From: Vermamoeba vermiformis
Lineage: Eukaryota
Reading direction: 5' to 3'
Assembly: GCA_045837725.1 (NCBI GenBank)
Contig: JBEWZL010000260.1
Coordinates: 496,001 to 560,000 of the forward strand
Length of the DNA: 64,000 bases
Both the position numbers and the translations under genes were made by a program. The notes under the pieces are model-generated. The model ran no database searches. It was not told where the DNA came from and saw nothing but the letters and a program-made list of their open reading frames with translations. This document shows, one piece after another, positions 25,074 to 64,000 of the stretch; the stretch's first letter is position 1; the number at the start of each line of letters is the position of its first letter.

Positions 25074-26698
25074 ATGAGTGCCACAAGTGAGAGCGATGTG
25101 AAAGTGGCAATTGTCACTACCTGCAAAGGAGGTGGTGAGACCACTGTTTCATGGATGGCGTATCATTTAGAAGTCGGGTTCGACCACTTATTCATGTTTT
25201 TTGACGATCCTAACGATCCAGCTTTGTCTGACGCGAGAAAATTCGATAAAAATCGGGTAATAATGAATAACATCACCAAGTACATCGACTACTTGTCTTG
25301 CCGAGCACAGAAAATTAATTTGTAAATATCTTATTCAAAGGTGTCAATCCTCGTATCGAATGAAGAAGTTAAAGAGAAGCTAAAGGAAGGACATGCGTAC
25401 AAACATATGGAACAGTATTTAAAAGACGAAGTTCAGGCTAGACAGCAAGTGAATGCTGAGTTAGGTACTTACCTTAGACATTTTTGAACTTTTCACACAC
25501 AACTCTAATTATCATCATGAAGCCCTTCAATTGAGCGCTGAGCGAGGGTATCACTGGCTATTACACATCGACATTGACGAGATATTTTACTCGTTTAATA
25601 AGCCAATCAAGCAGCACTTCAAGTATGACAATAGACCAATTTGATTCGAACAACACCGTTATTGACCTTGTGACACAGAGAGCTGATGAACCAGAACATA
25701 GGCCACTTGACTTACATGAACTACGAGGCAGTGCCAACAACAGTGGACATTGGAGATTATTTTCAAGAGGTCACATTGTTCCGCAGACACTTGTCTTCTG
25801 TCCAGCTGACCGCACCGGCCTATCAGTACGTAACAGTGTTAATTGATGCGTGATATGTTGTGCTAATATACGAACAGGGCATTAGAGTATTGGACGAATA
25901 GAAGAAAGCACGGACAGTTCTTTTTGGCCTATGACAATGGCAAATCTGCAGTGCGCGTGCTGCAAGGTGAGTGACACCTGTCACTATCAAGTAAGATAGT
26001 CATGACTAATGAAGCATTCAGGTGTGACACCGAGCTCAGTGCACGAATGGAAACTTCCAAAGCAGACGAGCGAAGGAGAGCACTTGAAGAGCTGCACGGC
26101 AATCAATGACGCACGTCATTTAGACTTGAATAAGCTGCACAAGTGCGATGTAAGCTGTGTCACTATCGAATTGGAGCTAACTTTTAGCAGGACGTGGTCA
26201 TCTTGCACTTCGTAGTGTGCGGCTGGAAGTGGTATTTGAGCAAGTACAAGATATTGGACGTGTTTCCCAATCACTGGTTTGGCGGAAAATTGAAAATAGC
26301 ACCGTGTTTTCATTTGGACTCACGAGACTTGTACTTGGAGGGTGATATCGAGAGAATGAAGCAATTTTACAGGTAAGGACTAAAGACATTGTCAACAATA
26401 ACTAATGCACAGCAGTGACCAAGTGGTGCTCGATGAATCTCAAATTGAACAACAAATCAATGCAGGATTGGTTGTGCGCATTGATCATGTGTTGAAGACG
26501 CTAGAGCAAGTGCGTGACAAGTACCCGACAGCCAGTGCCGCGTCTGTGTTGCGCCTTGAGGACCTGACAAAAGAAAAGCGTGCGCCAGTCAAAGCGAATG
26601 ATGGCCCGCCGAGCACTGTGAACACATTGCCACTCACCAAGCAGTGGATGATTGCTGCACTCGTTGGTCAGTATTTGAATCCTGACGACAAGCAGTGA
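25074..26698 (+). CDS. GT-A glycosyltransferase-like protein, KOBITO1-like
   Basis: WMAYHLEVGFDHLFMFFDD, RQQVNAE, WLLHIDIDE, NYEAVP...EVTLFR, FFLAYDNGKSAVRV...VHEW. Confidence 0.75.
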
Positions 26699-26741
26699 AC
26701 GCATTGTAAATAGCAATAATAATTAGTAATAAGAGCACAAT

Positions 26742-28870
26742 TTATTTCTTCGCGAATGTCTTCCTCTTGTCACCTTTAAATTCTTTTCGTTTCGGCTTGC
26801 CGAACTTATTCTCCGCATTATTAGTCTTGTTTCCTTTGTCTAATTTAAATGGCTTGTTTGGCTTATTGTGGGCTTGCTTCTTCGTGCCAGTGAAGCTGTG
26901 AAATAATGTGTTAATGGCTGGACCAGTTAGGGAAGTGCGCGACATACCTGCGCTTTGGCTTCTTCGCACTATTAGCAGTGTTGTTGTTAGTGTTATTTCT
27001 GTTGTTGTGCAGCTTGTCTCGGTTGAGTAATCGACGCTTTTGCACGTGGCCGTTGTTCTGTTGTTTGGTTTTCTGTTCGGGTGTCTTGATCTTTGCGCCG
27101 GGCTGTTTAGGTTTCTTTTGCAATGGTTTCTTTGCGCCAAGTGTTGCGAGCACCCATGACAAGTTGATGGTGCCGCTAAAGAATGTCGGCTTCTGTTGCA
27201 ACCAAGGCTCAGTCAGGGCGTGAATGTTCTTCGTTGTTGCCAGGGCAATGGTGACTTGTTCCACTTGTTCACGCTAACCAACTGTTAGCACTGCATTAGC
27301 AATTATGCTTAGGCTTACCAATGCTGTTTGATCGTTGACCGATAATTTCGAAGCATCTACTCGCTTCAGTTCTGACAGACGCGCGGCGAGTTGAGTGGTG
27401 TTAGCTTTTGTAGTCTGCATCAAATAATCCAAGCGTATTTTGAGGTCTGTGCGTCGTTCGGTTAATTTGTCTGCGGGGTCCAAATGTTCCCAAGGCTGAC
27501 CAATCGACGGTGTATTGACATTGACACCTGTCAAATTCTTGAATGACCACGGAGCTTTCGAGCCAATTTGGTGAGTGGCATACAGCACGCACTCAATGTA
27601 GCTGAAGTTGAATTGTGGTGCGTGAATGACTGAAGGACGTGGCACGGCGTCCAGCAGTACAGTGTGCAGAGATGGGAACACTGCGCGTGCAATGGAGCTC
27701 GACACTGAGGGCGATGACTCAGCCACTGCGCGCAACAAGAAGAGTTTGAGCTCAGGGGTCAATTGGGCCAGTTTGGGCAGCAATTCATTGGTGACGTGTT
27801 GCCAGAACACAACCGAACACACTCCGTCCTAGCGAGAGGTTAGTAGTGCCACTGACATTAGTCTACTAGTCGAGTACTTGCCTTGCAGAGTGGTGCAGCG
27901 GCAGCAAAACAGTGAACAAACTTGGCTGTGGCATCAATGTCAGTGACCGAGGGTGATTTGTTGGCCTCTGAGAGCTCTTCTAACAGCTGCACTAATTTAA
28001 CACGGCCTTCACCTTGATACACACGCAGTTTGACGAGCACTCCAATCAGCACTGTGAACTCGTCGTCCGTCACATCTTCGAGCACCTTTGTGACTGCTGT
28101 TAGCACTAGAACGCTGAATATGTCACTGTGTACAGACCTGCTTAATGAGACCAGAGAGGTGTTGTTCGACCTCGTTGTGCGGGTGAATGAGTGCATCGCC
28201 CAAGCGAGGCACATTGGCTTGGATCCAGTTCAGTGAATGACGGCGCACAGAGCCCGATCCGTGCAATATTTGATGAAACAGCGCGCTAAATACCTCTTTA
28301 ATATTCTGGTGCGCTAATGAGTCAAGTGCTTCTTTCACAGTGGTGGATTCAAGTTCTTCCTCTGGATGCGGTGACGTCAGCAAGGTCAGTTGAAGTGGCA
28401 CAACAAGCTCTTACCAGTGGAAAGAAGTTGTATTAAAATATCTGCCATGCGAGAAAGGTTTGTTGGAGAAGCCTTCGTTAGGAGGGGAATTTGCCGAATT
28501 GCGGTGACGCGGATCTATTCGAAAAAGAACGAAAAATTCAAAAAATAAGAATGACTGCATATTAAAATAATTTACCACATATTACTTACGGCTAAATCAT
28601 CTTCTTCGCATAAATCAACTATCGCTTCGGTTGCATCCTCGTGCAACGCAGCGTAGGAACTGAAATACTTTCCTAACAGCTGTGCTGTCAATTTCTTCTC
28701 TTGACCGCCCTTTTTACTGCATTCAATAAGCTCTTTATATAGTTTAATGCCCTAGTGATACCGTTGTTAGCTTGCGTTTCCAGATTCTCAGTTCTTACGT
28801 TTGGATCGTTCGGCTTCTCAATTTTAATGAGCTGGTCATTTAGTGAATATAATTTGTCTGCTAGTGACAT
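26742..28870 (-). CDS. API5: Apoptosis inhibitor 5
   Basis: EKKLTAQLLGKYFS..HEDATEAIVDLCEEDD..IRVTAIRQIP; QFNFSYIECVLYATHQIG. Confidence 0.88.
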
Positions 28871-29006
28871 TGTGCTGTGGTGTTTATAATGACAAGAAAA
28901 TAAAATTGGAGGGATCTGAAAAAACGAACCTTTTTTCTCTCTTTGGTAGTTTTACGCTTTTTTTTTTATTTAGTCGAATTACACTGACAATAGTCCTGTT
29001 TTCACC

Positions 29007-30917
29007 TTAGAAAGCAGGCTCGTTGTCCATAGAACCCATGCCGCCCATAGCACCACCCATGCTAGGCATCTTGGGGCCACCAGCGGGCTTGGCCATGATG
29101 AGCTGATCAATGCCGAGGATGGTGATGGCTGTGTTGGTGGCGAGCTTGATGGCGTAGAACTTGGCCAAGTAGCTGTCAAACACGTGCATGTCAACGGCAG
29201 AGCGGATCTTGTGCTCGTAGACGTCAACACCGTCAAACTTGTCGTTCTTCATGTGGTGGCTGTACAGCGTGGAGATGATCTCGCTAGCATTCATGCCTGC
29301 ATTCTCAGCAATGGTGCGCGGCACGACTTCAAAGCTCTCGGCGTACTTGTTGATGGCGTATTGCTCTTGGCCAGGAGTAGTCTCGGCGTAGGCCTTCAAT
29401 TGCTTGGCGAGCTCAATCTCAGCAGCACCAGCACCGGCGAGCAGTCTGTTGTCCTTGCTCAGGGCCTTGTAGACGTTGACACCGTCTTCAATGGCACGTT
29501 CAATGTCATCCAAAACATTTTGAGTGGCAGCGCGCACAACAATAGTGGCGACACCGCTGTCGTCCTTGTTTTGCTTCAAGACAATTACTTTTTGACTGCC
29601 AATCTCGTCGACGTAGACCTCAGAGCAGTGACCCATCTCTTCAGCGGTGGGGGCACCGAGTCTGACCATAGGAGCAGCACCAACTGTCTTGCACAGACGA
29701 CGAATTTCGAACTTTGAAAGAGTCTTGATGACCATCAATTTGTATTTCTCCAAGAAGTGCATTGCCATCTCGTCAATAGCGCCACCGCTGATCACGACAT
29801 TGACGCCGCTGTCAGCAATCTGTTTGATCAACTTCTCCAAAGCAGCTTCTTCGCCCTTGTTAAAACCCAACAACTCTTCGGCGTTCTTCAACACCAAGGT
29901 GCCCTTGCCTTCTGTTTTGGCAACACCAATGCCGCCAGTAAAGATGGCAATCTTGGCGTCATTAACGCGCTTAATGGTGCCTTCAACATCGCGTGACACG
30001 ATGGCACCCTTGACAGTGAATGAATCACTCACACCACCACCAGGGATTTTAGCGACGCGCACGTTATCTACATTGAAGTTCTTGCTGTTCTTGGGCAGAG
30101 TGCTGATGCAGGCCTCGGCTATGAGACGCGACAAAATGTCCTCGTAGCCGATGTGTTTGGAAGCAACGGCAGCTTTGATAGCGCGGCCCATACCTTCAAG
30201 ATCGTGCAAGTTCTCTGCCTTTTGGGCCACCATATCTAAAATTCATATTAGTACGGAGGAGTAATAGTAACAAGAATAGAGGTGAGGCTTAAGAAATTGA
30301 TTTTTGATTGAGATCGTGATCGTGTTGGCACGTACTTTGCAACAATTCTTCGACTTTCTGTCCAGCCTTTTCGAAACCAGTAATAATATCGCTAGTGTGC
30401 AAGCCAACGCGCAATAATGCTTCAGCTTGTTGTAAAAGCTCTCCTGCGAGAATAATGACAAGATTTGTGTGATCTCCGACCTAAATACGTAGCATAGTTG
30501 GTATAAATCTTGCTAAATGCATGTGAGTATTTTTTGGTACCTCTTCTTCTTGTCTCTTTGAAGCCATGACGATCATCTTGGCAGCAGGATGCACGATCTC
30601 CAATTCCTTAACAATAGTGCCTGCATCGCTGGTGACAATAAGTTTTTCTTGAGCGGTAATGACCATTTTGTTCATGCCTATGCAAATAGATTAGAAAAAC
30701 AGAATATTGCATTATTGGTGGATTAACAAAAATAATTATTTTAAATAATTATAATAACGCTCTAAATGCTATCATAGGTACCATTAGGGCCCAAAGAAGT
30801 TCTAATAATTTTTGCCAACTCTTTGCAGGCCTCAATGTTGCGTAAAACAGCCTCTTCTTGGCCTGAGAGGTGCTTGGTGCCCTCTTTCAACATATCTTGT
30901 GCGCGTGAGACGAGCAT
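29007..30917 (-). CDS. CCT8: T-complex protein 1 subunit theta
   Basis: EEAVLRNIEACKELA..RTSLGPNG, MNKMVI, FNVDNVRVAKIPGG, IDQLIMAKPAGGPK. Confidence 0.97.
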
Positions 30918-31110
30918 TGTGTAATATAGTTATAAATATACTTCGTTGAGGTGTTTACAAGTAGGAGAACAGCAACAATCGAGTTGCAGCAGCCTGACAG
31001 AACAAATTTTTTGGTTAAGTCGCGATCTGCCCAGTTAAGCGAAGAGGTCGGCGTTTATTGGTTATTCGCGACTCTACTGTTAATATATAGAACACATCTT
31101 TTGTATATAA

Positions 31111-31999: not shown

Positions 32000-32105
32000 A
32001 GCCGCGTTCGTTCAATGTCAGGCCTTGTAAAATTTGTACAAAGTGTTTGTAAAAAGAGTTGATTATTATTTACAATAATATGCGCCAAAGTGACCAAGCA
32101 CTAGA

Positions 32106-34721: not shown

Positions 34722-34822
34722 GCCAATTAATGATACAAGCAGATAAGACTGCGTGTCTCGTTGTAAATAATGATTTATTTTTCTCGTTGAGAAATAAAAG
34801 TGTATTCTTACAAGATTGCCTA

Positions 34823-41915: not shown

Positions 41916-44652
41916 TTATTTATTACTGCTCTTCTTATCAAACGGCAGGCCGAGTGCCTTGTAGTAAAAGGCGTACTCGAGCGCACACTCACGCAGTCGT
42001 CCAAATCTGCCGCCCTCACCAAAGTGTCCCGAGCTGTCATCTGTCTTCAACAGCAGCATGTGCTCGTTGGTCTTGTAGTGGCGCAGCTTGGCCACAAATT
42101 TGGCAGGGTGCCAGTAGGGCACACGATTGTCTATGGTAGAGGCGGTGAAGAACATGTGCGGATAGGGCTTGCGCGTGATGTTCTGATAGGGATCGTACTG
42201 CAGTTGTGCATCAAACACCTCGCGCAGCTGTGGATTGCCCCACTCATCGTACTCGTGCACTGTGAGCGGCAGTGACGTGTCGTGCATGGTGGTCAGCACG
42301 TCTAAGAACGGCACGCGCAACACCATGGCCTGCACTGCGCTGCGTAACTGATTGGCCATCCAACCTGTTCACGGACACCTGTCAACTCCTGTCAAGTGCT
42401 GTCACGTAGCACTTACCGAGCACCAGTCCGCCAGCACTCGCACACTGCGCCACAGTCAATGAATCGCGTGTCCAGTGCTGCTCTTGCAAGTGCTGCACCA
42501 CAGCTTGAAAGTCGCGCATCGAGTTCAGTTTGTGCACGCCTCGTCCTGCCGCGTACCATGCACCGCCGAGATCTCCGCCACCACGCACATGTGCCAGAGC
42601 TACAATCCAGCCGCGCGACAAGAGTGGCAGTATTTCATCGCGGTAATACAAGTCCACTGAGTGACCATAAGCGCCGTACACCATCAACAACACGGGATTA
42701 CTGCAAATGGGTCAATCCTTGCCGAATAAGGAAGTTGCACTTACTTGCCATCACGTGCTAGATCACGCCGTCTGATCACTGTGACAGGCACACGCGTCGC
42801 ATCGTGGCTCACTGCAGTGTCGCGCTCAACAATGTATTGACGCGTGTCAAAGTCAGGCTTGCCTAATATGGTCTTCTCGCGCAAACACGTCAACTGCCTC
42901 GTGCGCATGTCATAGTCGTAGGTCTTGTCGGGCACGAGGGGATTTGAAAAGGAGAAGCGCAGCACACGCGTGAAGGTGTCCTGTCAGATTGGTCAATGCT
43001 GCATCTAGCAATACGGAGCACACGCACCATGTTGACACCAGGCGCAATGTCACCAATCGAGTGCGGCAGACCAGCGACGAGGTGATGATATTTCTCGTCA
43101 AACAGCTGGCCGTAGTCATTGTGCGCACTCACCGCTGCCACGTCCAGCACGCGGATCTGCGGCAGTCCCTCGTGTCGCTCGTACAGCACAATGAACTCAT
43201 CGAACACGTCGCAGTCTGCAATCTTCACGTGAGGTCGGTGCGGAATAACGCATTGCCACTGCGAACGATCGGCAATCTTGTCGCAGTCGACGAGCATCAC
43301 TTTGTAGTTGACGGCCCCGCCCTCGTTGGTGATGATCAGAAACTTGCCCTGGTAGAGGTGTCAGCTACAGACATTGCTTAATATGGAAGCCCTTACGCGA
43401 TAGTGTTCGATGTAGTGTTCGATGCCCTCGGTGCGCGGAATAATGACAGGTGCCAGTTGATCACGTGTCTGACTCGGATCACGTGACGTGTTCAAAAGCC
43501 GCACCTCAGACGTGGTCTTGGAGTTGATGTTGATAGTGATGTATTTCTAATGACACGTGTCAGTGTATTGCATGACAGATGTCAAAGTGTCACCTTGTCC
43601 TTGGTGCTGATAATGTCCACAAAGAAGCGATCGTCGAGCTCTTCGCACACGAGCTGATCAGTGCTGCTGTCAGTGCCGATCACGTGACACATGACGCGAT
43701 AAGTGCGCTTCAAATGATCGGGCACGGTGTAGTACAGCCACTGCCCAGTCTCGTTCCACTCCATATTCATCACATTGCGCACCTCTTCGCGCACAACACC
43801 AGTGTGGAGGTCTTTGATGTAGAGGTGGTACGTCTCGCTGCCTGTCTTGTCCATCGTGAAGGCCAGGTAGCGGTGATCACGCGACAGTTTCATCGCGTCA
43901 ATGCCAATGTACTCGCCTGGTGCTACGAGTGCGTTCTGATCGAGCACTATCTGCGAGTGCGTCAGTAGTGCACAAGCACCGCGATCAGCAGTCAGATCTG
44001 CGTACCTGTTCAGGGGCTGCGAGAGACTTGTGCTTGCGACAGAAGATGGGAAAGTTCTCGTCGCCAGTGTAGCGTCTGTAATAGTAATACTCGCCGAACA
44101 GCTCGGGCACAGTGCTCTCATCCTCTTGCAGTCTGCTCTTCATCTCGTAGTACAGCTCTTGTTGGAGCTGCAACGTGTCGCGCATCGTCTTGTCGACGTA
44201 GCTGTTCTCCTCGCTCAAATACTGCGAGGTCTGCAGCACTCGTGTGAGTACCAACACTGTGATATATATTCAGCCTCTTACGTGTTTGTCCATGGTGCGC
44301 AGCCATTCAAACTCGTCTGCAAATGTCTTGTCGTGCCACACATGGGTCGATGATTTCTTGCGCGGCACTGGTGGTGCTAATTTGGTGGTGCTATTGCGAG
44401 TCCAGGGCCATTTCCGCGCTGTGGCGAAGGATCTGTCCGAAGAGACACGTTGACCTGTTTTGGTCTCATAAAATTTGTTAGATTTTTACATATTTTTTCA
44501 ACACAACACACATGATGTACTATATATAGCAAGGTGTGTTGATTTAATTTGAATTTTTGACATTAATTTTCTCGCGGTTAAGTGCAGCTTACCAACGAAC
44601 GCTGTAATATCCTCCGCAAACTGTTACTAATGACTGTCTTATATGCGAACAT
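41916..44652 (-). CDS. Oligopeptidase B-like S9A serine peptidase, probably mitochondrial
   Basis: YLSEENSY, YGAYG, AHVRGGG, xSAGG nucleophile, VPFLDV, EYDEWGNP, DNRVP, GH. The spliced N-terminus MFAYKTVISNSLRRILQRSL resembles a presequence. Confidence 0.92.
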
Positions 44653-44752: not shown

Positions 44753-45755
44753 ATGATTCGCATCAAATTAATATTCGATGATAATATCCTCATAGCCGAG
44801 GAATACAGGAAAATATGGTTTCTAATTCCAGACACGGTACACTATGTCTCAGATCTGGTGTATTTAATTAAGACAAAATTTTCACTCAAAAACACAAGTT
44901 CCAAAGGACTCTATTTAGTATTGGATGAATTTACACTGCCATTTACCCAGAATATTCAACTGATCCGCGAAAATGATGTAATAATGTAAGTAATTTATTT
45001 CTGTAATTGGCTCTGATATTTATTTGTCCTGCAGTGTGAAGAACAAAACACCCAAACAGAAGATTCGAGCGAATGTCGAGGCACCGAGCTCATCGTGTAG
45101 TGCGAGTGATGACAGCAGTGCGAGTGAGAGCGCAGAGAGTGTGCAGCACCACGCCACTCACCACGCCCCCACTGCCACTGCACACGCCACTCAGGCCACT
45201 GCGCGCACCAATCACACACGTGCCAGCAGCGTGTCAGCGGAGAGCAGTGACAGCGATGACAGCGAGCACGTGATCAACACACCGAATCAATCACGTGCTA
45301 TCGCTGACACCAACAAGAAACAATCGCAAAGACTAGAGAGTGCCAGTCACGTGCCACCAGTGCCACCACAACGGCGTGGCGAGTCATTGGGCCGTGGTTA
45401 TCGTGCCCCGCAGTGGCCCTGGCTGCCATTCACACTCGCCTCTCACACTGACACCTGTCACTCGTCACAAGCCACCGCACCCTCATCCGTGTCACTCAAT
45501 GCACTGCAGGTAAGTGTTTGACACGTGTCACATGTCACTCACCTGTCACAGCGCGAAGACGTGATTGCCTTCAGAACAATGGAACTCGAGGGCTGGCAGC
45601 CAGTGCTGTCACCTGTCAAACAAGCAACTGTGCGTGCAGTGACACCGCACTCGCTCACAGTACGTCTGTTGACAGGTGTCACAGCTGAGGCAGAAGAAGT
45701 GACACTTGCAGCTGCGGATCTGATCGACTTGACGGTGGTGAATAAACACAGCTGA
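44753..45755 (+). CDS. COIL: Coilin-like protein
   Basis: N-terminal IRIKLIFD...VSDLVYLIKTKF..LYLVLDEFTLP..QLIRENDVI; C-terminal Tudor-like DVIAFRTMEL.GWQPVLS. Confidence 0.75.
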
Positions 45756-45773: not shown

Positions 45774-45846
45774 CTAGTCTTGCGATGTATATATATAGAG
45801 CGGCACTAGTCTTGCGATGTATATATATATAGAGTGGCACTAGTCT
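45774..45846. repeat. Tandem duplication (about 32-34 bp unit) between convergent stop codons
   Basis: CTAGTCTTGCGATG(TA)nGAG(C/T)GGCA occurs twice, followed by a partial third unit. Confidence 0.9.
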
Positions 45847-48658: not shown

Positions 48659-49441
48659 ATGGCAACTAAATTCGGCGCAAACCCCAAGTGTCCCAGATGC
48701 AGCAAGGCAGTCTATCACGCCGAGAAGGTGTTGGGTGCTGGCAAAGAGTGGCACCGCAGCTGCTTGACTTGCATGGACTGCAACAAGGTACTGCTAATTC
48801 CGTGCATATGCGCACTTGATATAATTATTTGAAGCGATATCTTTATTGACGGTGCATTGTATATTCACAGCGCTTAGACAGCACGACACTGACCGAGCAC
48901 GGCGAGAAGATTTACTGCAAGGCCTGTTATGCGCGCAACTACGGTCCTAAGGTAGGGTGTAACGGAGATATCGCTCGTCGAATGGATCGATTGCTTGCAC
49001 GGCACCGTGTCTATTGGTCAATATATACAGCTTAAATTAACGTGTTATTTACTTGTAGGGTTACGGATTCGCTGGTGGTTCTGCAATGTGAGTATCTTCG
49101 CACGACTATTGAAATTGACTGCTGATACTAAAAAGTTAATTTACTATAGGATGCACACTGGTGGAGGGTAAGTTTAAGAGTGCACTAATCAAGATAAAAT
49201 TCAGTTTCGATAAGTACGCAAATGCAACGGATCTGACTGACACTTTGACAGTTTCTTTCAACCCGAACCCAAGCCTGATATGCCTACTAAGACCAATGGT
49301 ATGTAGTAGTAGTGGTTACCAACGCGTATACAACAGTCATGGCTCATTTATCTCGCAGCTACTTCGTGCCCCAAGTGCGCCAAGGCAACGGATCCCGGTG
49401 CTCGCTTCTGCGCCGGCTGCGGTCATCAGTTGTTGAACTAA
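48659..49441 (+). CDS. CRIP/CRP-type single LIM protein with C-terminal zinc ribbon
   Basis: PKCPRCSKAVYHAEK..WHRSCLTCMDC..IYCKACYARNYGPKGYGFAGG; final exon CPKC..ARFCAGCG. Confidence 0.88.
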
Positions 49442-49531: not shown

Positions 49532-52500
49532 CTACTTCTTATTGTAGACCATAGAGGCGTTGTTCGTGGTGCCTTGACGAGGTAGCAACAAGCGCCAAGT
49601 CCAATGACATATCGAGTTGATGAGGTGACTAATCTGCTCAGTCTCGCTCTCGTTCTTTTTCGCCCGTTGGTTCAGATCGAGCTCTTTGCGACACGCGAAC
49701 ACTTCCAAGAAGGTGCTGTTCTCGCCAAACACCAAGTGCAAGGTGAGCTCGGGCCACTCAGGATTGAGTATGAACAGATGCAGCAGTTGTCCGACACGAT
49801 ACTGGCGCACACGCGGCGAATAGAGCACGGTCAAGTGCGGCACGAGCTCCAGCCACGGCAATGGGGTGCGAATCAGTTCGGTGAGCTGGGGATCGAGCTC
49901 TTCAATGTGGCGACAGTAGATGAGGCGCATCAAGTTGTGGAACTGCGCCTCGGTGAGTCCCTGTTGCGGTGCGGTGAGGGAGGGTGAGCCGATCTGCTGG
50001 CCGAACAACAAGTTCCACATGATGTCGCGCTCACTGTGCATCACTGCCTGTTGAATCACCTCCACCAGCTGTTCTTTGGCCTTGAGCAGTGCTTTCTGCA
50101 TGATGGTCTCATTGAGCTGCAGCTGTGTGCCCGGTGACGTGGCGAGTTCACTCATGATCTGCGAGGTGTGCGCGGCACCTGGATCTGCACTGCTCTTGTT
50201 GGGGTTGAGCGTGGCAGTGTTCGAGAGCAGACTGGAGACCTGTCCGACCGATGAGGCGAGCTGTGGGAATATCGTGTTGGTGTTGGTGCGAATGATGAAC
50301 ACGTCCAAGCAGATCTGTTTCCTCTTCTTGTCGTCACTCGCAGGAGGTGGCACCACGAATGCAATCACCGTGTAAATGAAGGGGTGCTCGTCATTGTTGA
50401 GCTGTGCAGTGAGACTCATGTAGTGCGGCACGAGATTGGGTGTGGTGGCACTGAAGTATATCGCGGGCTTGATGCCGTGCTCGTGCAGATTGGCCACGCC
50501 GTACAGCTCTGCGCGCTCAGCGACGAATGAGAACAGCTCGAGCGGACTGAGCACGGTCAACTCTTGCAGATCAATGGCAAAGCTGTGCTGCAAGATCTGA
50601 TTGCGCGCGTACTTGGGTGGTGCGTGGTGATAGCGCACGAGTGACTGCAGCATGTGCACGAGTTCGAGGGGTGGATAGGGGGCCTTGGAGGGTGCAGCGA
50701 GCAAGAAGTGCTGTATCTGTCGCAAGTGATAGTCGTACACAAACGAGTTCATGTGCAAGTGATCTTTGAGCTTGTTGCACTCGTCCGAGAACATCTTGAG
50801 CTGCCGATACAACTTCTTGGGATTGAGAATCAGCTCGGTCTGCTGCGTGATCAGCGACAGTTCTTTGGCGCCACTCGCACTGGGCTGCGACGAGGTCTCG
50901 AGCTCGAGGTAGAGATTGTACAGCCCTGCAGCACTGGTGCGCAGACTGTGCATAAAGTACAGGTCACACGTCACGAAGAAGTCGCGGAATCCGAGCACGA
51001 CCAGCAACAGTCCACCGCGGAACACGCGCTGCATGTAGACCTTGGGGTACTTGATGTTCTCGGTGCTGGTGAGGGCCGTGTTCTCAGTGACACTCTGCCC
51101 CACCGTGTTGAGTTGATGCACGCCATACGACTCAAGGTACTTCTCGTAGTCGAGCAGGAAGCGGTCCAACAGTCCGCGCTGCCAGTGCGCGAGTTCTGCG
51201 TGTGGCGTGAGGGCGGTGGAGAAGATGGGCTTGACGAGCTGATCCTTGATCTCACTCGCCACGGCACTCTCACCATCGATCGATCGACTCGTGGGCTTGT
51301 GCTCGGTGGGCATGCGTGCCAGCAAGAACGGAATGCGACAGCAGTGCACGAGTCTGCTGAACTTGATCACATTCTCCACCTCCTGTTGTGAGCGCAGCGA
51401 GTGGTGCTGACTCTTGTTAGCGGCGCTGTTCTCTTTGTTCTCGTTTGGTCGCACGGCATTGCGTCGTCCCCAGTTGTTGTAGATCTGTTTGATGGTGTGC
51501 TGGCGCTGTTGTAGCCGTTGCAGGTGCGGCACTATTTGTCGCGCGTGCGTGGTGTGACGCAGCACTGGATCGTGTTCTGCACCAATCACGTGCTGCGGAT
51601 GGTGATATTTCAGCAAGATTTCAAAGGGACACGTGGAGGACTCGGTGGCAGGCGTTGATGACGTCACAGTAGCGACAGGTGTCACATTGACAGGTGTCAC
51701 AGGCACTGTAGGTGGCACTTGGCCAGTCTTCGGTGCATTGGGTTGTGCAGTGCTAGCGAGGTGCGGTGGCTGTTTGAAGCGCGAGAAAGCAGTCTTGGAG
51801 AGGTACGAGTTCTGTGCCACACTGCGCGAGAGTGAACTGGACACGGGCCCTGCAGGACGAGTGGTGTGAATGATCAGCGAGCTCTGATTGGTCGCTGCAC
51901 TGCTCACACTCGGACTGGGTGCTGCGGGTGTGTTTTCACGTGACTTGCGCAGCAGTGCCACCTTGCGACCACGTGATTTGCGCGGAGGGGTGGGATTGGC
52001 CATCAAGAGCTCCACATTCTCATTGGTGAGCTGCACATTGAGGCCCGGCGCAGTGCTCTGTGCAGCAGCGCTCTTGCTCTGTGACTCGAGGGTGGCACGT
52101 GGCACGTGGTAGAAGAGTCCCATCTTCTGATGCAGCACATTGGACAGCAGCTGTGAGCGGAGGTGCGTCCACTCGTTGATGCGCGACAACTGACTCTTCA
52201 ATCGCTCCGCTATCTGCGGATTGATGTTGTACGTGTAGCACTGCAACACGCGACTGTGCTGCACGGTCAGGTAGATGAAGCTGTGGCGGTGCACTGTGAC
52301 CAGCGGCGAGATCTTCACATTGTGATAGTACACCAGATCACGCTGCGTGCTGTAGCGCTGCTCACTGCTCTCACTCTCAGCGTGACTCGGCTCCTCGCTG
52401 TGCACGTGTTGGTTGTGCACCGAGTCGTAGATGGCACTCTGCGGCTTGACGGCGATCAGCACCAGTGTGCCGCGGTCTTTGTGGAACAGGAGCTGCTTGT

Positions 52501-55500
52501 TCTGCTCGCTGTACGTGCGGTGTGCACTCGCTGGCTTGATGCGTGAGATGTCGAGGGGCTGGAAGAGTGCCTGGTCGTCGCGTGCAAACAACACGGCGGT
52601 GACGAGGGGCGGGGCGAGGTCGCGCACAATGTCCAGCACTTCGGGCAGGTAGTAGGGCACTGTCCAGGCGGGCATGGTGAGTTCAGTGCGTATCTCGCGC
52701 ACGCTGGGCACTTGTCTGCTGTGCGCTAGTTGCAGCATGTTCAAGCGCGCACGAGCACGCGCAGACTCGTCGTCAGTGCGCACGACACTCTGCAGCGCGG
52801 TGAGGGGCACGGGTGAGCTCGAGGGCGTGGTCTGTACACTGGACTGGGACACATCTGTCGCTGCCAGGGCCACTGTGTTGACTTTGAAGTAGGTCTCGAG
52901 CGCGTACTCAACCAGGGCCTGATTGGCGCACTCCGTCACGTGATCGATCAGGGCCTGTACCTCGACAGAACCGCGTGCCCAGAGCGAGATGTTGAGTGCG
53001 AGGCGCAGGTGTGGATTGAGCAGGGAGATGGGTGTCGCGCACTCGGTCGTGAAGCACTCGCTCTGCAGCTCTAAGCGCGGCAGGTGCAGCCACTCCTGAT
53101 CACTCACTGGTCCTGCGTGCACCTGATCGGGATCTTCCACCGCTGCGTAGTCGAGGGCAATGCACGCCACACCTTGCCCGAACACTGGTGGTCCAGTGGC
53201 TGTGGCGACGAGTGGTGATGCAGCAGCGAGTGCACCGGTGGCGGGTGTGACGGCAGTGGCAGCAGACTGGGCAATGTTGTTGTAGATGAAGCTGAAGTCT
53301 GCCTCTTTGATGCGTATCACACAGCGGCCATCGCTGTCAGTGTTCACGCAGCCGAGTGAATCGAGATTGGGAGTGTCGTACATGCCGGGGGAGAGCGGTG
53401 AGGCTGATTCAGGGCCCGGAGGTGAACTGAGTGCAGCACTGAGCGGCCCTTGATTGAGCAGTGCGCAGCTGAGTCCAAAGCTGTTGTTCTGATGCAGCAG
53501 CAGCGTTGTCTCGTGACTCGGTGCCGTGGCAAAGTGCATCACGTGCAAGTGCTGCTTGGCGAGGTTCTGCTTCAAGAAGAGCAGGTAGAGATAGGGATCA
53601 GCGAGCAGATGCGTGGGCAGTGCAATGTGGTACTGCCGCTGTGGGGCTCGATCCGCTGGCCGCAAGAAGTTGACGTCAGCAGGCGTGAGCTTCATCTGCG
53701 GATTGCGTCCGAGCAGCGTGGAGATGATGCTGAGGGTGATGGCGTGCAACTTCTTCTCGAGCAGCTTGTGCAGCTGTTCGGTGATCTCGCTGCCCGGGGG
53801 ATCAATGCCGTACACCTTGACGATCAAGTAGCTCTGTTGTGCAGTCGCGGCACTCGTGGCACTGTTCGCAGCAGTCACTGAAGCAGCGCGCACACGACTG
53901 CTCTCCGCAGCAGGGATCGGGATTGGCGTGGTGAGCGGTGTCTCGTGCACGGGTGCGTCGCTGAGGTCCAGGTAGGCACTGTGCTCGTGGTCGCGCAGAT
54001 CCCCCGTGTAGCTGAGCAAGCGCAGATAGAAGGTGTGGCCATCCTGCTGCCGATACACGAACATGTGTCGTCTGTTGGTGACTTGGAAGTGGTGCAGCGT
54101 GGAGTTGATGAGGGCTTTGATCGCTGTGCTCGGCTGCAGGCGTTCATTCAGCGGCAGTGCCATGACGTGCACGATGGGCATGCTGAACTGACCAGGGTAG
54201 TACAGCGTGTGCGTGTACTGCTGATTCTGCAACTGACTCAACTGTCTGCTCTCGTGACTCTGATCGCTCGATTGGCGCGGTGAGCGTGATCCGCGCTTGC
54301 TCTTGGTGCCGTCACTCTCTTCCTCATCGTGCTCGGGCTCCAGCAGCACGGAGCACACCTTGGTGTCGTGCAGTTGGTACAGCAAGAACAGCTGATTCAC
54401 GCGCTTGGCGATCAATCGAATGCGCTGTCTGAGGGCATTCAACACACGCATGCGCAGCGACTGCTTGTGCTCGCCATCCTCGAGCTCCAGCATGCGACGA
54501 TAGGGACTGGCAGGATCGGCAAACAGCTCAGCGCACCACTGAAATCGGACCTTGACCACATCACCTGCATAGCTCAGAATCAGCCAGAACGGCACGCGCA
54601 TGTGCTGCTCCTGATCGCGGTGCACGAACAAGAAGAGATCGTCCAAGCGGTGCAGTGGCAGCAGCGCAGAGTGTTCGAGTTCGTGCGGGAACAGCTTGCG
54701 ACACTCACGCGCATCCACGAAGAGCAGTGGCACGGTGAAGTTGAACAGCACTGGCGGTGAGAGGTGCGTCATGTAGTGCAGCACAATGTCGACGGTGGGA
54801 CGTTGCAGCTGTTGCTGTGCTTCACTCTGCACACGCAGTGCTTGCAACACTTGTTCCGCAAGCAGGGCGTGCACGGACTTGTGCATGTCGCGCAAGAGAT
54901 GTCTGATGTCTGCGGGCAACAGACTCACGGCCTCGTTGATGCTGGCACTGTGCGCATTGTCCTCTTCGTGCACACTGGGCAGTGCACTGCGCTCCTCATC
55001 GAGGCCAGTCTTGCGCAGCTGTTGCGGGGGCAGGGTGATCAGCACGAAGCGCAGCAGTATCTTGTGGCCTGCGTGGTGCTGCAGCTCAGCGACAGTGTGT
55101 GGCGTGGGAATGGTGGTCACTGGCACCACGACGTCACTCTCGCTGTGACTGTGCACGGGATGCAGCACACACTCCAAGCGCATGAACAGCGGCACTGTGT
55201 ACACGGAGGACGAGCCCAGCTTGGTCTTGGCTTGCAACAGATCAGTGCTCGGTGCTGTCAGTGCGCCATTCAAGCTCTTGGTGGGCGTGGAGGGCGAGTC
55301 AGTCTTCTTGCGCGACTCTGAGGCCCAAATGTCTTCAATCTCGGGCACGGGACTGTTGTCTGCGAGGTGATGCGCGTCATCCTCCAGCACAGGGGCATCC
55401 ACCACAAAGTCCTCGCCCGTCAACTCTGCATCCTCTTCTGTGTGCGCGCTGTGCTCGGGACGGAAGTAGAACAGTCCTGCGCCCTCGTGCACGGGCACAA

Positions 55501-58500
55501 AGTATCTGCTGAACATGGCGCTGAACTTGTGCGTCAACTCCTCGCTCGATGCTGCACTCTCGGTCTTGCTCAACAGCCGCGCACACTGCGTGAGATCGAG
55601 TTCGCTGGGATAGGGCCGTGCAGTCCACTGCATGACATCGAGCTCGCTGCTGCCAATGCTCAGGGACTCATCGCGCAGCACGGAGTACAAGGTGCGCACC
55701 AGTCCGCGTCTGTATTCAGCGCGCACTGCACCACCGAACTGTCGCGCACCGAGGGAGAGCAAGCGACGCGTGGAGGCAGTGCTCTGCGTGCTCTGTGCCT
55801 CACCCTCATCATCGCTGGGCACGCGCTCAGTGCTGCTCTGCATGTTGGTGCTGCTCTCGCGCTGTGACAAGTGCTCCAGCCACTCGCGCACTGCTCTGCT
55901 CGCGGTGGGGGGCGTGTGCTCGAGTGCTGTGCGCGAACACTCGCAGAACTCCACCGTGAGATCGTGCTGCAGCGCAGTGAGCAGTGACTCGTCGTCAGGG
56001 GCCGTGCTGAGTGCGTGATCGTCGTCAATGGACACGAGCAGCACCTCTTTCTGCGAGATACCCTTCACAAAGTACTTGGCCACTGTCTCCTCCACGCGGC
56101 CAGGCACAGTGCAGTCTGAATAGATGGCCACAGCGCTGTGCAGCACGTAGGTGAGGGTGTTGCGTATCTCGCGAGTGACGCGCAGCACTTTGTCGTTCTG
56201 CTCGGGCTTGAACATGGGCTTCACCACGGCAAACTTCTCCGTGTGTCGCTTGGACATTTCAATCACCGCATCCACGCTGAACACTGGCCGCACAATCTCC
56301 ACGTCACTGCGCTTGGTGATGTGCAGGTACTTGTCGTCCTCGCGCTCGTCCTCAGCGCTCTTGTCGTCCTCCTTGCTCAGTATCTGCAGCAAGCGATCAA
56401 AGGTGAACAGCGAGGACACGAGCTCGTGATCCACCTGATAGATGAGCTGCTTCAGGCGTCGGAACACCTCGCTCTCGTTCAGCTCGCCCTCTGCGCACTG
56501 CACCACACCGCGCTGAGGCTCCATCCACAGCTCGGTCACAATGAAGCCGCTGCTCGTCACGAACACGACGTACTGCACGATGCACGGCACTGGCTCGCTG
56601 CTGGCACTCACGCGCAAGTAGATCTCTTTGAACAGCGTCACACCGCGGTCACAGTGCGCGATTCTGAAGCCCTCTGAGAGGCGTGTGCGCACCACTGCCT
56701 CGACGATTCCTTCACGCGTGCGCGCAGCATTGACGAGCCAGATCCAGCGATGATGGGCCAAGTAGTGCATCAGCAGCGTGAACACTGGTGCAAGTTGTAT
56801 CAAATCAGAGAGCTGCGCAGTCTTGTTGTCATACAGCGAGGGTGCTGCACTGCTGTGTTCGGTGCTCGAGCTGTGCAGCGAGTGACTGGGACTCGCGTGA
56901 CTGGTGCTGCTGGCCAGCTCGTCCGCGGCATTGAGCAGCGCGTCCTCCTCCTCAGTGGTGGTGCTGTCGTGATCCGTCTCGCTCTCACTCTCGCCTGGCA
57001 CACTCTCGCCATCGCGCTCAGACACCTCTTCTTCCAGGGCACGCATCGAGTCCTCGCTGTGCGGTGTGGTCAGTTGAATGCTGCTGCGTCCACTGCGCGT
57101 CAGTTTGCCAATCTTGACTGTGGTGGCAGTGCTGCTGCGACGATGCATCGCACGCGAGGGCCGTGCAGTGCCACCAAAGTGTTGCTGGGCGTGTGTGGCG
57201 CGCAGTTGATTGAGGTCGTAGCGCACCAGCAGGGGACGCAGCGGCTTCTTGCACACCGCAATGGCCTTGTGACCGTAGCAGTGCGCGTGTTCGAGGGTGT
57301 GACGCAGCTCGTGCATGATGGCAGCGCGGTGCTCGGGTGTGGCTGCAAAGAAGTAGATGTACACCACCATCAAGTTGTCGCTCTCCTTGCTCAGTCGTGC
57401 CACGCAGAAGGACATGGCAGCACCAGTGCTCAGCTCGCTCTCCTCACTGCTCTTGTCGCGCAGGAACTTGACGAACAGCTGTCGCGAGTGATTGACATCG
57501 GACCAGTGCTCGAGACAGTCCAGCAGCGCGGTCAAGCTCTCTTTGAAGGTGAAGGACATGCTGCCCGCACCACTGCTCGCGGAGGTGGTGATCAGTGTCG
57601 TCTTGTCGCTGCTCGCCAAGTTGCTCTGACTCTCAAACGAGCGCACTTTGAACTTGCTCTTGCTGCTGTTCGACACGCTGTTGCTCGCACTCGACGATGA
57701 CGTCATCACGTGACGCGTGCCCTTGCTGAGCGAGGAGTCGTGTATCAGCACGAGTTCTAAGCGCTCCGTCTTGAACCAGCGGTGCCAGGGATTGCTGTCA
57801 GCTGTCAGTCATCAATCACACTTCAGCGCTGCGACTCACCCTCCCAGTATTGACAGTGACTTCCAGAACTTCTTCTGCTGCTCCAAGGCACGTGTCAGAG
57901 TCGGTGTAGCGCTGTTCTTGTTCGCGTCAATGCTGTTGCCGCGCGGTCGAATGAGTGCCAGCTCTTGCGCAGAGGTGATGAGGGCGGGCACGTCAATCGC
58001 CGTGTACAGCGTGCTCAACAGCTGCGCGAGCAAGCGATCAGTCTCCGTCAGCACCGAGAGAAAGGCGTGCAGTTTGCTGGGCTGTGACTTCTCGAGTCCG
58101 GAGGGCGCTTTTTGTAACGAATTGAAGAGCAGCAGGAAGTCGTAGTACGAGAGCACTTCAATCTTGATGTCGATCGGTGTCGAGGTCGTGTCGGTGGATG
58201 TCGGTTTGTGAGCGCGCAGTGAATAGATCACTTTCACTTGTGGTCTCCAGGCCAGCAGAAATTTCACCGAGATATCTGTTTTAAGGTCAGCAACGAGTTT
58301 CAGCATTACGCGTCATCAATTGACACGCGTTGATTCTACGAGTGCTGCAAATATCACGTGTCACTCACCAGTCTCAGAACTCTGCACGGAATTCACTTTG
58401 AAGCCCTCACGGCACCGCGCATCAGCCAGCAGTGTGAATAGTGCCTCGGAGAGGTGTGGTGGCAAAGTGACAGGCTGCGTAGTGGCAGTCGGTGGCGCGG

Positions 58501-60020
58501 GCAGTACGTAGTGTCGTGCGCGCGTGACGAAGAAGGGTGGTGGCGTGGAGACCGCAGTCTGCCAGGGATATGGAGCATCGAGCGAGACATTGGCTGCAGT
58601 GGGTGTGTTGGAATTGGCAATGGACTCGGTGGAGGTCGCGAGTGAGGACATGAGCGCGGTGATGACAGCACTGACAGCAGGGCCCTGCTCATCGTGCGGG
58701 GCCAGCAGTCCACCACTCGCTTCATCCTCGCGCGTGGGAGTGCCGCTCACCACACGTCCGAACAGTGCGCGCGAGAGAGTGGCGAGCACGTAGGGCAGTG
58801 AGCTGTGTTGACGCAGCGGTGCGAGCGGTGTGAAGGACCAGGACGGGGCGTGCGTGGACTGTGCGAGATGTCTGCAGCTGTCGGTGTCAGCGATGTGACC
58901 AAACGGCGAGTAGAACGCATTGGAGCCAATGGTGATCACTGGCGAGGCAATGTCCTCGCGATTGAGCAGCATCAACAAGCTGTCGTACTGGTGTATGTTC
59001 TCGGGCAGTGCCAGCACACCATCTGTGAGCCAGATCATCATGGGTGTGGCGTCACGTGGCAGCAGTTTGAGTGCAAATGCCGCATTCTGCAGCTGATAGG
59101 CACAGTCACCCTCATTGCTGGTGCTCGTGCTCGTGTGAATGATCTTCTCTTCCACGCGGAACATGGACACTTTGATCTGCTCTAAAAATAGCGGCAGTTC
59201 GTCACGCGACAGCAGCGCTCCTTGACACAGCGTTGCAAAGCTCTCGGTGCTATTGCCCTGCGCGATGATGGTCACGTAGACCTCGGGGGAGAGCTGTGAA
59301 ACAATGGTGAGTGACAGGTGTCAACGCGCACTGCAGAGCTAGGTACCTGTATGTTGGAGCGAGGCACGTGAATGGGCTGCGTGATGGTCATCAGCAACAG
59401 ACACAAGTTCTCGTACAGCTCCGAGTACAACACGCGATTCAATTGCGGATCTAAGCTGCCCATCGATGAACTGACGTCTACGCTGATCACCACTCTAGAA
59501 ACACTGTTAGTCATACGAAGATAGGGCGCTGTTGTTTGCGCTACTTGCCGGTACTTGCACGCGTAGATCCGCAGCTTGGTGTCACCAGAGAGGGTGTAGT
59601 GTTGCGTGCCTGTCACGCTGTCAGTACAATGCTCGACACCTCTAGACATGCCACTCATATATATAGTGCGTACCTTGACTGACATCGAAGGACGGTATCG
59701 TGCTCTTGTGCACAATGTTTTCTATCGAAGGCCAATCCGCAGGGAAATTATTGTAAATATTATTTATGGTGCGTTCATCGTCTGAAATTGCTTGCAATAC
59801 ACGAACATTGTCATTGGTGATCTATAATTAATTATTAATTGAGTGAACGTGCGTGTTAGCGCAGCTGGATCAGATCTACCTTCAGATCAACAAAAGGCTT
59901 GTTCAAATTGTCCAAGAACCACGAAAACTGATCATTTCTATTAAATAGCGAATAGTCTTTCACTAGCAATATTAGTTGATCGATTGTTCCTTCACTTTCA
60001 GCAATCTGAACTGAATCCAT
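49532..60020 (-). CDS. SZT2: KICSTOR scaffold SZT2-like giant protein
   Basis: vWA-like VVISVDVSSSM, MIWLTDGV, ARCREGFK, RLSEGF, VTELWMEPQ, RVNQLFLLYQLHDTKVC, LLSNVLHQKMGLF, HMNSFVYDYHLR. Confidence 0.88.
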
Positions 60021-60163
60021 GTCGAAAGTGGTTGCTTAGGTGTATATATAGGGACAAGTTAAACTCGAGTACTGATTGTTGCCATTCGTGTTCTTATAAT
60101 GCTACTCGAGGGTGAAATGGATAAAAGGACCATTCAAGACCGCAATTACATTTCACAGCAACA

Positions 60164-61107: not shown

Positions 61108-61272
61108 TGTTCTTCATTATGTATTCGAATAATTTGTAAATAGGCGGATCCATTTGTACATTAACAGTTTTATAGCAACGCAATTAGTAATTTTTACAAG
61201 GAGAGGGTGGGATAGGGGAGGGTGGGTTAATTCGTGATTTGGTCAAAAATAATCGAGGGGAGGTGAATACGA

Positions 61273-64000
61273 CTATAAATATAACTTCTGCACATCATCG
61301 GCACCGAATTGCTTGGCACAGCGCGGACACTTGCGATTGCGCACTTTGACGCGCTCGTTGATGCAGTGCTCGCAGAAGGCGTGAAAGCATGCTGGACGCG
61401 CGATGACCACGCTCTTCTCGCGCTCATTGCAGATCGAGCAGCGCACGAGTCGCTGATAGTAGTCGAAGATCTGGTCCTCGGCGTTGCTCGTCTTGCCACT
61501 CGCATAACGTTCCAAACGTCGTCGCATGCCATCGAGTTCGCGCTGCAGTGTCTCGTTGCGCCGTGATTCGCGCGAGTGTGCTTCACTGTGCACTTTGGCC
61601 TTTTCAGAGGACTCGACCAGGTTGTCTTCCATCTTTTTGAGTCTGTTTTTGAGGTCGTTGCAGCCGAGTGTCAGCTCTGTGGTGGCATTCTTCTGCAGCT
61701 CTAACAACTTCTCCAGCGACCGCGTCTCTTCTTGGTATTTGTTCAGCATTTCATTCAGACTCGCTGTAGACTTGTCGTGCTGTTCGAGCACTTGTTTCGA
61801 TTGCGCAACAAAGTTGTTGTTCTCATTCAACTTGTCTTGCAGCACTTCTTTTTCACGTGTCAGAGCCATAATTTGCTGCGTGAATTTGATGCGGTCGTGC
61901 AAGAGCTGCAAATTGGTGTCTTCTTTCTCCGCCAGCAGCGTGGAGAGTGCTTTGTTGGACTGCTCGACGTCTTCAAAGGTCTTGGCTATCGCTTCAATTT
62001 CACCGATCAGTGTTGCTGATTCCTAACGGTACGAATGCAAAGATTAATACCCACTAGACTGTATATATTTGCAGATCATACATCTTTGAGACCACCCAAT
62101 CGCTTGCTTAGCTCTTCTTTGCTCTTCTCTGCTTTACTAAGTTTGATTTGAAGATCACTCTTCTCAGTCTTCAGCTGATTGATCTCTGAGCTGACGTTGC
62201 GGGCCTGATCTCGCGCATTAATTTGTTCGTCGATGCGTTGCAAGAACATATGTCGCTCTTCAGGGCTTGCAAGCTTGGCTGACAGTGAGTCCTTCAGGGT
62301 CAATTCGCGCTCTTGATATTTTCTGCACCAACGCGTCAGTATATAGTGTGGATGTTATTTAATACTACGTACTTTTCTCTGCGCTCGTGCTCAAAGATAG
62401 TGTGTTGCAATTTCTTGACAAGATTGGTCAGATCTTTGCAGCCCGGACAGTTCTTCTCGGGGTCAGCGCGGTACCGTTCCATTTCACCGTTCACATTGTC
62501 CAGATCTGACTTGAGTTGTTGATTTTCAATGCGCAGAGCACTCAACGTCGTCATCAAATCAGAGATCTTCAGATTGGTGATGATTTCCTTAATAGTCTTC
62601 AGTGTCGTCGGGATGTGTTGTTCAAAGAGCTCGCCAAAACTTCCTTTTTTAGCCAATATGCCATCAATAACCTCAGCATCGATCACATTGCCGCGGTGCA
62701 GTTCTAGAGCCATGGCAGCGAGCTTTGTCTTGAGCTGATTGCGCTCTTGCACGAGCTGTTTGAACTCAGTGAGCTGTCCGAGCACGAACTGATTGAGCTT
62801 GTCCTCCATCTTCTTGTCGCGCTGACTCAACTGCACGTCACGCAGCTGCTTCAACTGCTCGCTGTTCGCTAGCTGCTCTTGTTTCAAGCTCTCAATGGTG
62901 TGCGCGTGGTTGGCAATGGTCTGTTCGCACGACTGCACTTGTTGGCGCAGAGACAAGTAATACGCAGTCTTTTGGAACAGGTCGTCAGTCGGATTCGTGA
63001 CTTGCATTAGCAGCTCTTGGTTGGTGTTGCGCAACTGTTGATTCTCTTCTTCGAGCTTCTGAATCATGGCGTCTTTGTCTCGGTTCAACGCCTTGACAGT
63101 GTTGAGCTCCAACTCAATGTCCTGCAGTTGTCCTTGCTCGCCTGTCGCAGGTGTGCCATTGACATGTGTCACAGGCTCGCTGTTCGTCGGACCATTGCTG
63201 TTCTCATTCACCACTGCAGAGCTGGCACCCGACGGCTTCAGTCCATTCAGACGATCGATTTCCAACTCCAATTTAGCCTGAATATTGTTAGCACGCTGCA
63301 GTCTCTTGAGCACGAGGTCATGCTCATCGCGCAGCTGTTGCATCTCAGTGCGCAGGTGTGCCAGATCGCTCTCTTGCGCCGAGTGTGTGCTGCGCTGGGC
63401 CAGGTACTCGCTGCTCGGTGAAGTGCCGCGGCTCTGATACACGTGCACCACTGCGTCTTTCATGCGCTTCAGTTGTGCTTGCAATACTTGGCGCGTGGCT
63501 TGATAGTCGTCGATATTAATGCGCGCGTCGTTGTTGTTGTTGACGTCGCCGTTCTCAGACAGATCATCGTCTAGGTTAGCAAACGAGGGGAAGGCAGCAA
63601 TGTTCGTTTGATCTTTCAGAATAGCCTCCAAAAAATCGTTTGAAGGGCCATTTGAGGCATTTTGCTCTCCTGCCACTGCTGCGATGTCGTCTAGCGTCTA
63701 CAAAAATAATTATTAAAATTTTACTTTTCTTCTATTTTATTCTGGTAATCACACAATTACTCTAAAAATAATTACTCTTATATGTGTGTCATTTGAAAAT
63801 TATTATAAACAATTTTTCCTACCTGCTGCAATAGATGTGCCACGAAATTTAATTGGTCAAAGAAGAATAAGCCCGTTGTTTCTTTTGCTTTGACTAAATT
63901 TCGTAATCTTATTATTTCTTTTTTATTTTCTTGGAATTTAGCAAACAGCTCTCGGTTTTGGGCTTTGAGCAGATTCAGATCGAAGTTCTCTGTCTATTTA
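61273..64000 (-). CDS. BRE1: H2B ubiquitin ligase BRE1 (RNF20/40); 5' end outside window
   Basis: Long coiled coil, EIEAIAKTFEDVEQSN, terminal RING CSIC..CFHAFCEHC..RNRKCPRCAKQFG. Confidence 0.9.

Follow-up and report, generated by a model that had tools for sequence, protein, structure and literature searches.

The closest described counterpart of the element reported here is the dimer site of the TALE homeodomain proteins MEIS, PKNOX (PREP), TGIF and Homothorax (Hth). In the available text of two reports, the MEIS3 consensus is given as TGACAGGTGTCA (PMC5449588) and the palindromic Hth/MEIS dimer motif as TGACA_NN_TGTCA (PMC5501803). We analysed a stretch of 64,000 nucleotides of nuclear DNA from the amoeba Vermamoeba vermiformis (assembly GCA_045837725.1, contig JBEWZL010000260.1, positions 496,001 to 560,000; hereafter the window), and found that this palindrome, TGACANNTGTCA (TGACA-NN-TGTCA), occurs in it 11 times. 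A first-pass annotation made from the letters of the window had already likened the motif to the dimeric TALE-homeodomain site, in agreement with the published words: the half-sites, their inverted orientation and the 2-bp gap are the same, TGACAGGTGTCA is the commonest word in the window, and the centres are mostly G/C. Animal MEIS-type sites are described from promoters and enhancers and are degenerate, whereas the copies described here are letter-perfect, occur about once per 6 kb, lie in transcription units in 10 of 11 cases and never have GC as their centre.

Other known systems share some of these properties. The core bound by the plant and algal TALE proteins KNOX and BELL is TGACAG(G/C)T, which matches the first eight bases of TGACAGGTGTCA, but KNOX/BELL sites are not described as strict 12-bp palindromes. 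The DNA uptake sequences (DUS), uptake signal sequences (USS) and Chi sites of bacteria, together with the palindromic elements of Rickettsia, resemble the present pattern in that perfect copies occur in an all-or-none manner, far above chance, and are tolerated in coding regions and protein loops; however, DUS/USS and Chi are not palindromes, the Rickettsia elements are 100–150 bp long, and to our knowledge no uptake or RecBCD-like logic exists for a eukaryotic nucleus. Introners are similar in placing a recurrent sequence in several short introns beside splice signals in either orientation, seen here as GTGAG-TGACA and TGTCA-CTCAC. They differ from the present case, in which full-length introns do not form a near-identical family, terminal repeats and target duplications are absent, half of the copies are exonic, and the shared sequence is 12–18 bp. 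No description of the phenomenon was found in the literature searched for the exact words, for amoebozoan genera and for introners; the papers retrieved for the exact words do not concern protists.

Excess and fixed spacing of the palindrome

Exact pattern counting gave 11 copies in 64 kb, whereas 100 dinucleotide shuffles of the window gave a mean of 0.30 (standard deviation 0.58, maximum 3), an excess of about 37-fold. The expectation was 0.26 copies when calculated from the numbers of TGACA and TGTCA in the window, and 0.18–0.78 under Markov models of orders 1–6, which were trained on the window itself and are biased towards the motif. The over-representation noticed at first pass is thus real, and all ten positions given for it are exact matches; an eleventh copy, at 21590, had been overlooked. 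Because this copy lies in AT-rich DNA and within the first 25 kb, the accompanying remark that the motif is missing from AT-rich DNA and from the first 25 kb is slightly wrong. Six of the copies are, as had been stated, a single word, TGACAGGTGTCA or its reverse complement, for which the Markov models predict 0.02–0.46 occurrences.

The excess is specific to one arrangement. When TGACA and TGTCA face each other, spacer 2 yields 11 matches and every other spacer from 0 to 15 yields 0–2 (6 in total over 15 spacers), and the divergent and direct arrangements of the half-sites yield 0–4. Among all 1024 5-mers at spacers 0–8, TGACA at spacer 2 is the sole outlier, the runner-up having 3–4 matches. 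The preference for spacer 2 therefore outlasts the modelling of 5-mer frequency, a check that the first-pass annotation had proposed as able to refute its claim. The excess is also nearly all-or-none: copies with one mismatch number 10 against about 4.3 expected (2.3-fold), and those with two mismatches number 47 against about 45 (1.0-fold). The three near-matches picked out at first pass (42373, 51673 and 57796) are among the former, and there are seven more. Taken with the codon shuffles described below, these counts exclude composition, codon usage and protein-level artefacts as the source of the excess.

The symmetry ends at 12 bp, as the flanking bases pair in only 2 of the 11 copies, an extent that suits a pair of 5-bp protein contacts better than the stem of a hairpin. 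The base preceding TGACA is G or T in 18 of the 22 half-sites. The centre is GG/CC in six copies, CG in two, and GA, TG and TT in one each, so that both central bases are G or C in 8 of 11. Read on the sense strand, the CC centre occurs four times and the GG centre twice, with no strand logic.

Copies in introns and exons

To place the copies we used our own gene models, made with a small self-trained finder. These comprise 23 genes and 85 introns (median length 55 nt), as in a compact, intron-rich eukaryote; exons occupy 62% of the window, introns 9.6% and the rest 29%. Three RNA runs labelled as the same species come from a diverged strain (of 280 reads, all except 3 were 95–99% alike); they gave almost no cover of a 20-kb stretch and confirmed only one intron, 48788–48870, which has no motif and is reproduced by the models. 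Comparison with tblastn showed that the models misplace one intron of the CCT-theta gene, and they are therefore a guide rather than an annotation. The copies and the blocks that contain them are as follows.

21590..21601: exact copy TGACATTTGTCA, AT-rich DNA outside the gene models
25972..25983: exact copy TGACACCTGTCA, from base +6 of a 55-nt intron (25967–26021) of a + strand gene
27522..27533: exact copy in an exon of API5, a − strand gene, encoding L-T-G-V-N
42365..42416, − strand: 52-nt prolyl-oligopeptidase intron with three TGACAG half-sites and the one-mismatch copy at 42373
43547..43593, − strand: 47-nt prolyl-oligopeptidase intron with exact copies at 43551–43562 and 43573–43584 and one half-site
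45449..45460: exact copy in the middle exon of coilin, encoding T-D-T-C-H
45510..45551, + strand: 42-nt coilin intron with an exact copy at 45519–45530, a one-mismatch copy at 45526 and two further TGTCA half-sites
45670..45681: exact copy in the last exon of coilin, encoding L-T-G-V-T
51673..51699: one-mismatch copy at 51673 and exact copy at 51688, 15 bases apart, in a 2758-codon open frame on the − strand
57795..57839, − strand: 45-nt intron of the giant gene with the one-mismatch copy TGTCAGCTGTCA at 57796
59312..59323: exact copy in a 53-nt intron (59294–59346) on the − strand, by the model the first intron of the giant gene
63148..63176: exon block of a coiled-coil/RING gene with an exact copy at 63160–63171, − strand gene, encoding V-T-H-V-N

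By the gene models, five exact copies lie in four introns (25972, 43551, 43573, 45519 and 59312), five in exons (27522, 45449, 45670, 51688 and 63160) and one in the unassigned AT-rich DNA, and the intron/exon split given at first pass agrees with this. Introns are enriched, with 5 of the 11 copies in 9.6% of the sequence (P=0.0023, or P=0.011 when the double intron is counted once). The restriction to gene bodies and the avoidance of promoters that had been claimed are not significant, since 1 of the 11 copies falls in the 29% without a gene model (P=0.13); that no exact copy falls in the first 21.5 kb is somewhat unexpected (P=0.011). Introns are also the richest in TGACA half-sites, with 8.3 per kb compared with 4.0 for exons and 2.6 for the remainder, and part of the sense-strand signal in introns resembles branch-point words (CTGAC, TTGAC). 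Splice signals adjoin several of the copies: that at 25972 overlaps the splice donor (GTGAG-TGACA), and that at 59312 is followed on the sense strand by the branch-point-like CTCAC.

Several of these introns have support from the proteins. The prolyl-oligopeptidase introns are backed by the Peptidase_S9_N and Peptidase_S9 profiles continuing across the exons, and the intron at 42365..42416 is supported by the latter profile. The coilin intron has a length that is a multiple of three, and if it were retained, the TGA of the motif at 45519 would be an in-frame stop. The frame downstream of the intron encodes the coilin Tudor domain, and this TGA must therefore be spliced out.

The copies are also clustered. 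Prolyl oligopeptidase has two exact and three one-mismatch copies, coilin three and two, and the giant gene two and two, so that 7 of the 10 one-mismatch copies lie within three genes that also carry exact ones (P=0.0013). The interval from 45.0 to 46.0 kb holds 18 half-sites, and the coilin exons, at 20.6 TGACA/TGTCA half-sites per kb, have the highest density in the window, which comes partly from Asp-Ser codons.

The coilin gene itself is small (44753–45755, + strand), with a Coilin_N match at its N-terminus (E 2e-13) and a Tudor match in the last exon (E 4.5e-5) that lies under the Pfam cut-off. For the giant gene (49532–59658, − strand) the models join the 2758-codon open frame to upstream exons and arrive at a coding length of about 9.9 kb; Pfam detects no domain in it, its G+C content (about 59–60%) is the highest in the window, and half-sites are scarce. 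A further intron of 54 nt (36262–36315, − strand) carries the zero-spacer palindrome TGACATGTCA, the only spacer-0 copy in the window, and another TGACAGG half-site.

Because the motif begins with TGA on both strands, it can be read in only two of the reading frames. Four of the exonic copies are in the frame xTG-ACA-NNT-GTC-Axx (LTGVN, LTGVT, VTPVN and VTHVN) and one is in the other. When synonymous codons were shuffled within the coding segments with the proteins held fixed, the mean number of exonic copies was 0.29 and the maximum 2 in 2000 trials, against 5 observed; shuffling of the codon order gave 0.034. The spelling that makes the motif is used in 4 of the 9 peptides of the form [LVM]T.V[NTSKRIM], and the codons ACA and GTC each account for only about a quarter of their own family. 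These results show that the exonic copies are a feature of the DNA and not a by-product of protein sequence or codon usage.

The exonic copies lie in weakly constrained regions, namely low-complexity linkers of the giant protein and of the coiled-coil/RING protein, the middle region of coilin and a loop of API5. The copies at 51673 and 51688 sit in a stretch of V-T-P-V-x pentapeptides. The API5 loop, between two well-aligned helices, has 29 residues against 8 in human API5 and is about 21 residues longer. A 94%-identical API5 relative retains the peptide encoded by the motif, a protein comparison that is silent on the DNA. The coilin exon found no homologues among proteins of 308–2000 residues, and a metagenome search with a prolyl-oligopeptidase exon found only two loci, both distant (60% and 57% identity) and both lacking the motif.

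A proposed dimeric reader and its alternatives

We tentatively read the palindrome as a putative site for a dimeric DNA-binding protein, probably of the TALE class, and our confidence in this is somewhat below even. We rank this reading first because the palindrome is fixed, blind to strand and steep in its specificity, because it matches the published MEIS site, and because amoebozoans have TALE proteins. The part of the study of Acanthamoeba that is available describes Meis and PBC proteins in this organism, with the AcMeis homeodomain very like the animal one and a weak binding of the AcMeis monomer to DNA (PMC3957477). In the available text of another study, TALEs serve as an amoebozoan outgroup, and TALE heterodimers are regarded as ancient and as present also outside animals (PMC6219170). 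All 11 exact copies have inverted TGACA half-sites with a 2-bp gap, and in most of them the centre is as in the published words.

From these properties we infer that a protein binds, that it is of the TALE class, and what its binding may do. A dimer would read the double-stranded DNA with one subunit on each TGACA half-site across the fixed 2-bp gap, and its likeliest constituent would be a homeodomain protein like MEIS, PKNOX or TGIF. Selection at the level of DNA might then keep the copies letter-perfect, and they would persist where coding permits, that is, in short introns and in loop or linker codons, in the two frames that avoid the TGA stop of the motif. The strong and weak copies that gather in prolyl oligopeptidase, coilin and the giant gene could be likened to homotypic clusters of binding sites, and a chromatin or transcription-linked role within transcription units would be favoured over classical promoter control.

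Several observations weigh against such a reading. Ten of the 11 copies lie within transcription units and none in a recognisable promoter, and transcription units are an unusual place for the site of a transcription factor. Perfect 10-base sites occur once every 5.8 kb and graded, weaker ones are nearly absent; so dense a set of perfect sites with no graded tail is likewise unusual for a transcription factor. The fully symmetric centre GC, which is preferred in the motifs of TGIF and of some MEIS/PKNOX proteins, is found in 0 of 11 exact copies. No homeobox domain was detected in the open frames of the window that were scanned against Pfam. In the available text of the Acanthamoeba study, AcMeis and AcPbx formed no dimeric complexes on the probes tested (PMC3957477). 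Moreover, some copies share more than the 12-mer. The blocks 51676–51704 and 63148–63176, which belong to unrelated genes, match at 26 of 29 bases, share their reading frame and make the same choice of synonymous codons, and a search of the window with this 29-mer block found one further close copy only. Three copies (45670, 51688 and 63160) have TGTCACAG in common at their ends, and TGTCACTCAC is common to three or four. A pure binding-site model does not predict such extended identity.

The shared flanks raise the question of whether the palindrome spreads by sequence-specific copying, in which a unit of 12–30 bp containing it would be propagated by templated break repair, ectopic gene conversion or a miniature mobile element. 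The copies would survive where they are harmless, in introns or as in-frame additions to loops, and the perfect ones would be young rather than selected. The 29-base pair of blocks and the TGTCACAG group would be expected from such a process, as would GGTGAG-TGACA or its complement TGTCA-CTCACC, which occurs four times, always in introns, and the local tandem duplications with offsets of 15 bp (51673/51688) and 7 bp (45519/45526). The extended API5 loop, the low-complexity linkers around other exonic copies and a mismatch profile without an excess at two mismatches are also consistent with it. On the other hand, the flanks are heterogeneous, with a mean identity between copies of 7.6 of 26, which is the background level, and the same GGTGAG flank accompanies CC at 25972 and GG at 59312, which is not expected from a copied unit. 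No terminal repeats beyond the core and no target-site duplications were seen at the copies, and no repeat family longer than 29 bp in the window contains them. The API5 copy is not very recent, because the 94%-identical relative keeps its peptide. We consider copying unlikely on balance. The first-pass annotation had offered, beside the TALE-type site that matches the published motif, a general template-switch process that writes palindromes, and we reject the latter because no other 5-mer palindrome is enriched at spacers 0–8. A miniature mobile element or introner is not supported, given the background flank identity, the single 26/29 pair and the absence of a longer repeat family.

A different dimeric reader, such as a basic helix-loop-helix (bHLH) protein on the embedded E-box CANNTG, a domesticated transposase or nuclease, or a DNA-modifying enzyme, is in our judgement a doubtful substitute for a TALE protein. 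CANNTG does stand at the centre of every copy (CAGGTG, CACGTG, CATGTG, CAGATG or CATTTG), the all-or-none specificity is more like that of an enzyme than that of a transcription factor, and the intragenic location is atypical of TALE targets. It is the outer TGACA/TGTCA that is invariant, however, while the centre varies over five classes, and the exact word is the published MEIS3 consensus. For bHLH proteins, which read the E-box centre and seldom need three fixed flanking bases, the five centre classes and the outer TGA/TCA invariant in 11 of 11 copies speak against this candidate.

It is quite improbable that the palindrome acts in the pre-mRNA, either as a small hairpin or as a protein-bound word tied to splicing or to the quality control of short introns, although a palindrome could be read there in either orientation. 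The location of 10 of 11 copies in transcribed DNA, the enrichment in introns and the gradient of half-site density would suit such a signal, as would the copies adjoining a GTGAG donor or CTCAC/CTGAC branch-point-like words and the in-frame stop in the coilin intron, with its length divisible by three. Against this, the bias towards transcribed DNA is not significant, half of the copies lie in exons, well away from splice sites, and those within introns are placed anywhere from +5 to +32. The predicted hairpins have stems of just 4 bp capped by tetraloops, with energies of −2.8 to −7.5 kcal/mol; relative to shuffles, z exceeds −2 in 8 of 9, and there is no covariation, the sequence itself being fixed. 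A structured RNA element is not supported, given the weak stems, the invariant sequence and the lack of any Rfam family in the window.

Finally, we give next to no credence to a functionless by-product of composition, codon usage or recurrent peptides, for although GTGACA (Val-Thr) is among the 30 commonest hexamers, the coilin exons are dense in half-sites partly through their Asp-Ser codons and four exonic copies encode the similar peptides (L/V)-T-x-V-(N/T), the 5-mer counts and Markov models predict less than one copy, other spacers give 0–2, synonymous-codon shuffles give 0.29 against 5, and the five intronic copies code for nothing.

If the pattern extended beyond the window, the genome could carry an intragenic mark of thousands of letter-perfect MEIS-type palindromes in introns and loop codons, held by DNA-level selection or by a copying drive, and read either by a TALE dimer of ancient origin or by a protein descended from a mobile element for chromatin, recombination or co-transcriptional processing rather than at promoters. 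We regard this extrapolation as improbable; if true, such a use of a TALE site has not been described in any eukaryote. TALE homeodomain proteins predate animals and plants, yet almost nothing is known of what they target in unicellular lineages such as Amoebozoa, and a perfect MEIS-type dimer site over-represented about 40-fold offers a testable entry to TALE function before multicellularity. Should the copies spread by copying instead, they would represent a self-propagating sequence of unusually small size, through which proteins gain residues and introns gain bases. Either way, by binding or by copying, the biology would be new.

Neighbouring genes and other repeats

Pfam matches in the window include COPA, a P-type ATPase, CCT-theta, API5, prolyl oligopeptidase, coilin and histidyl-tRNA synthetase. 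The CCT-theta exon has one relative at 96% identity, and its nearest named sequences are amoebozoan, at about 50–53%. Splice donors of the predicted introns are of two common kinds, GTAAGT and GTACGT/GTACCT (e.g., 30236–30335, 30678–30781 and 59294–59346). The GTAC type is frequent, and all three CCT-theta introns that were checked against the 96%-identical protein have it.

Six reads of the related strain, from all three RNA runs, join opposite strands at 48678–48718. The joint sits in the 5′ part of the one well-expressed gene (48659–49441) and may be a strain difference or a library artefact.

A unit of 27–34 bp containing TATATATATAG is present just past the coilin stop in two tandem copies that are 96% alike (45774–45846). 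A third copy, with 72–74% identity, lies at 59642–59680 at the predicted 5′ end of the giant gene, and the unit may be a shared promoter or terminator element.

In a two-copy pattern search, tandem arrays of the same 12-bp palindrome were found on viral contigs at 48 loci, including L005, L012 (from a giant-virus bin) and L040. These arrays are regular, with periods of about 15–40 bp and up to 6 copies at about 30–39 bp; they look like iterons or operator arrays and seem unrelated to the eukaryotic pattern.

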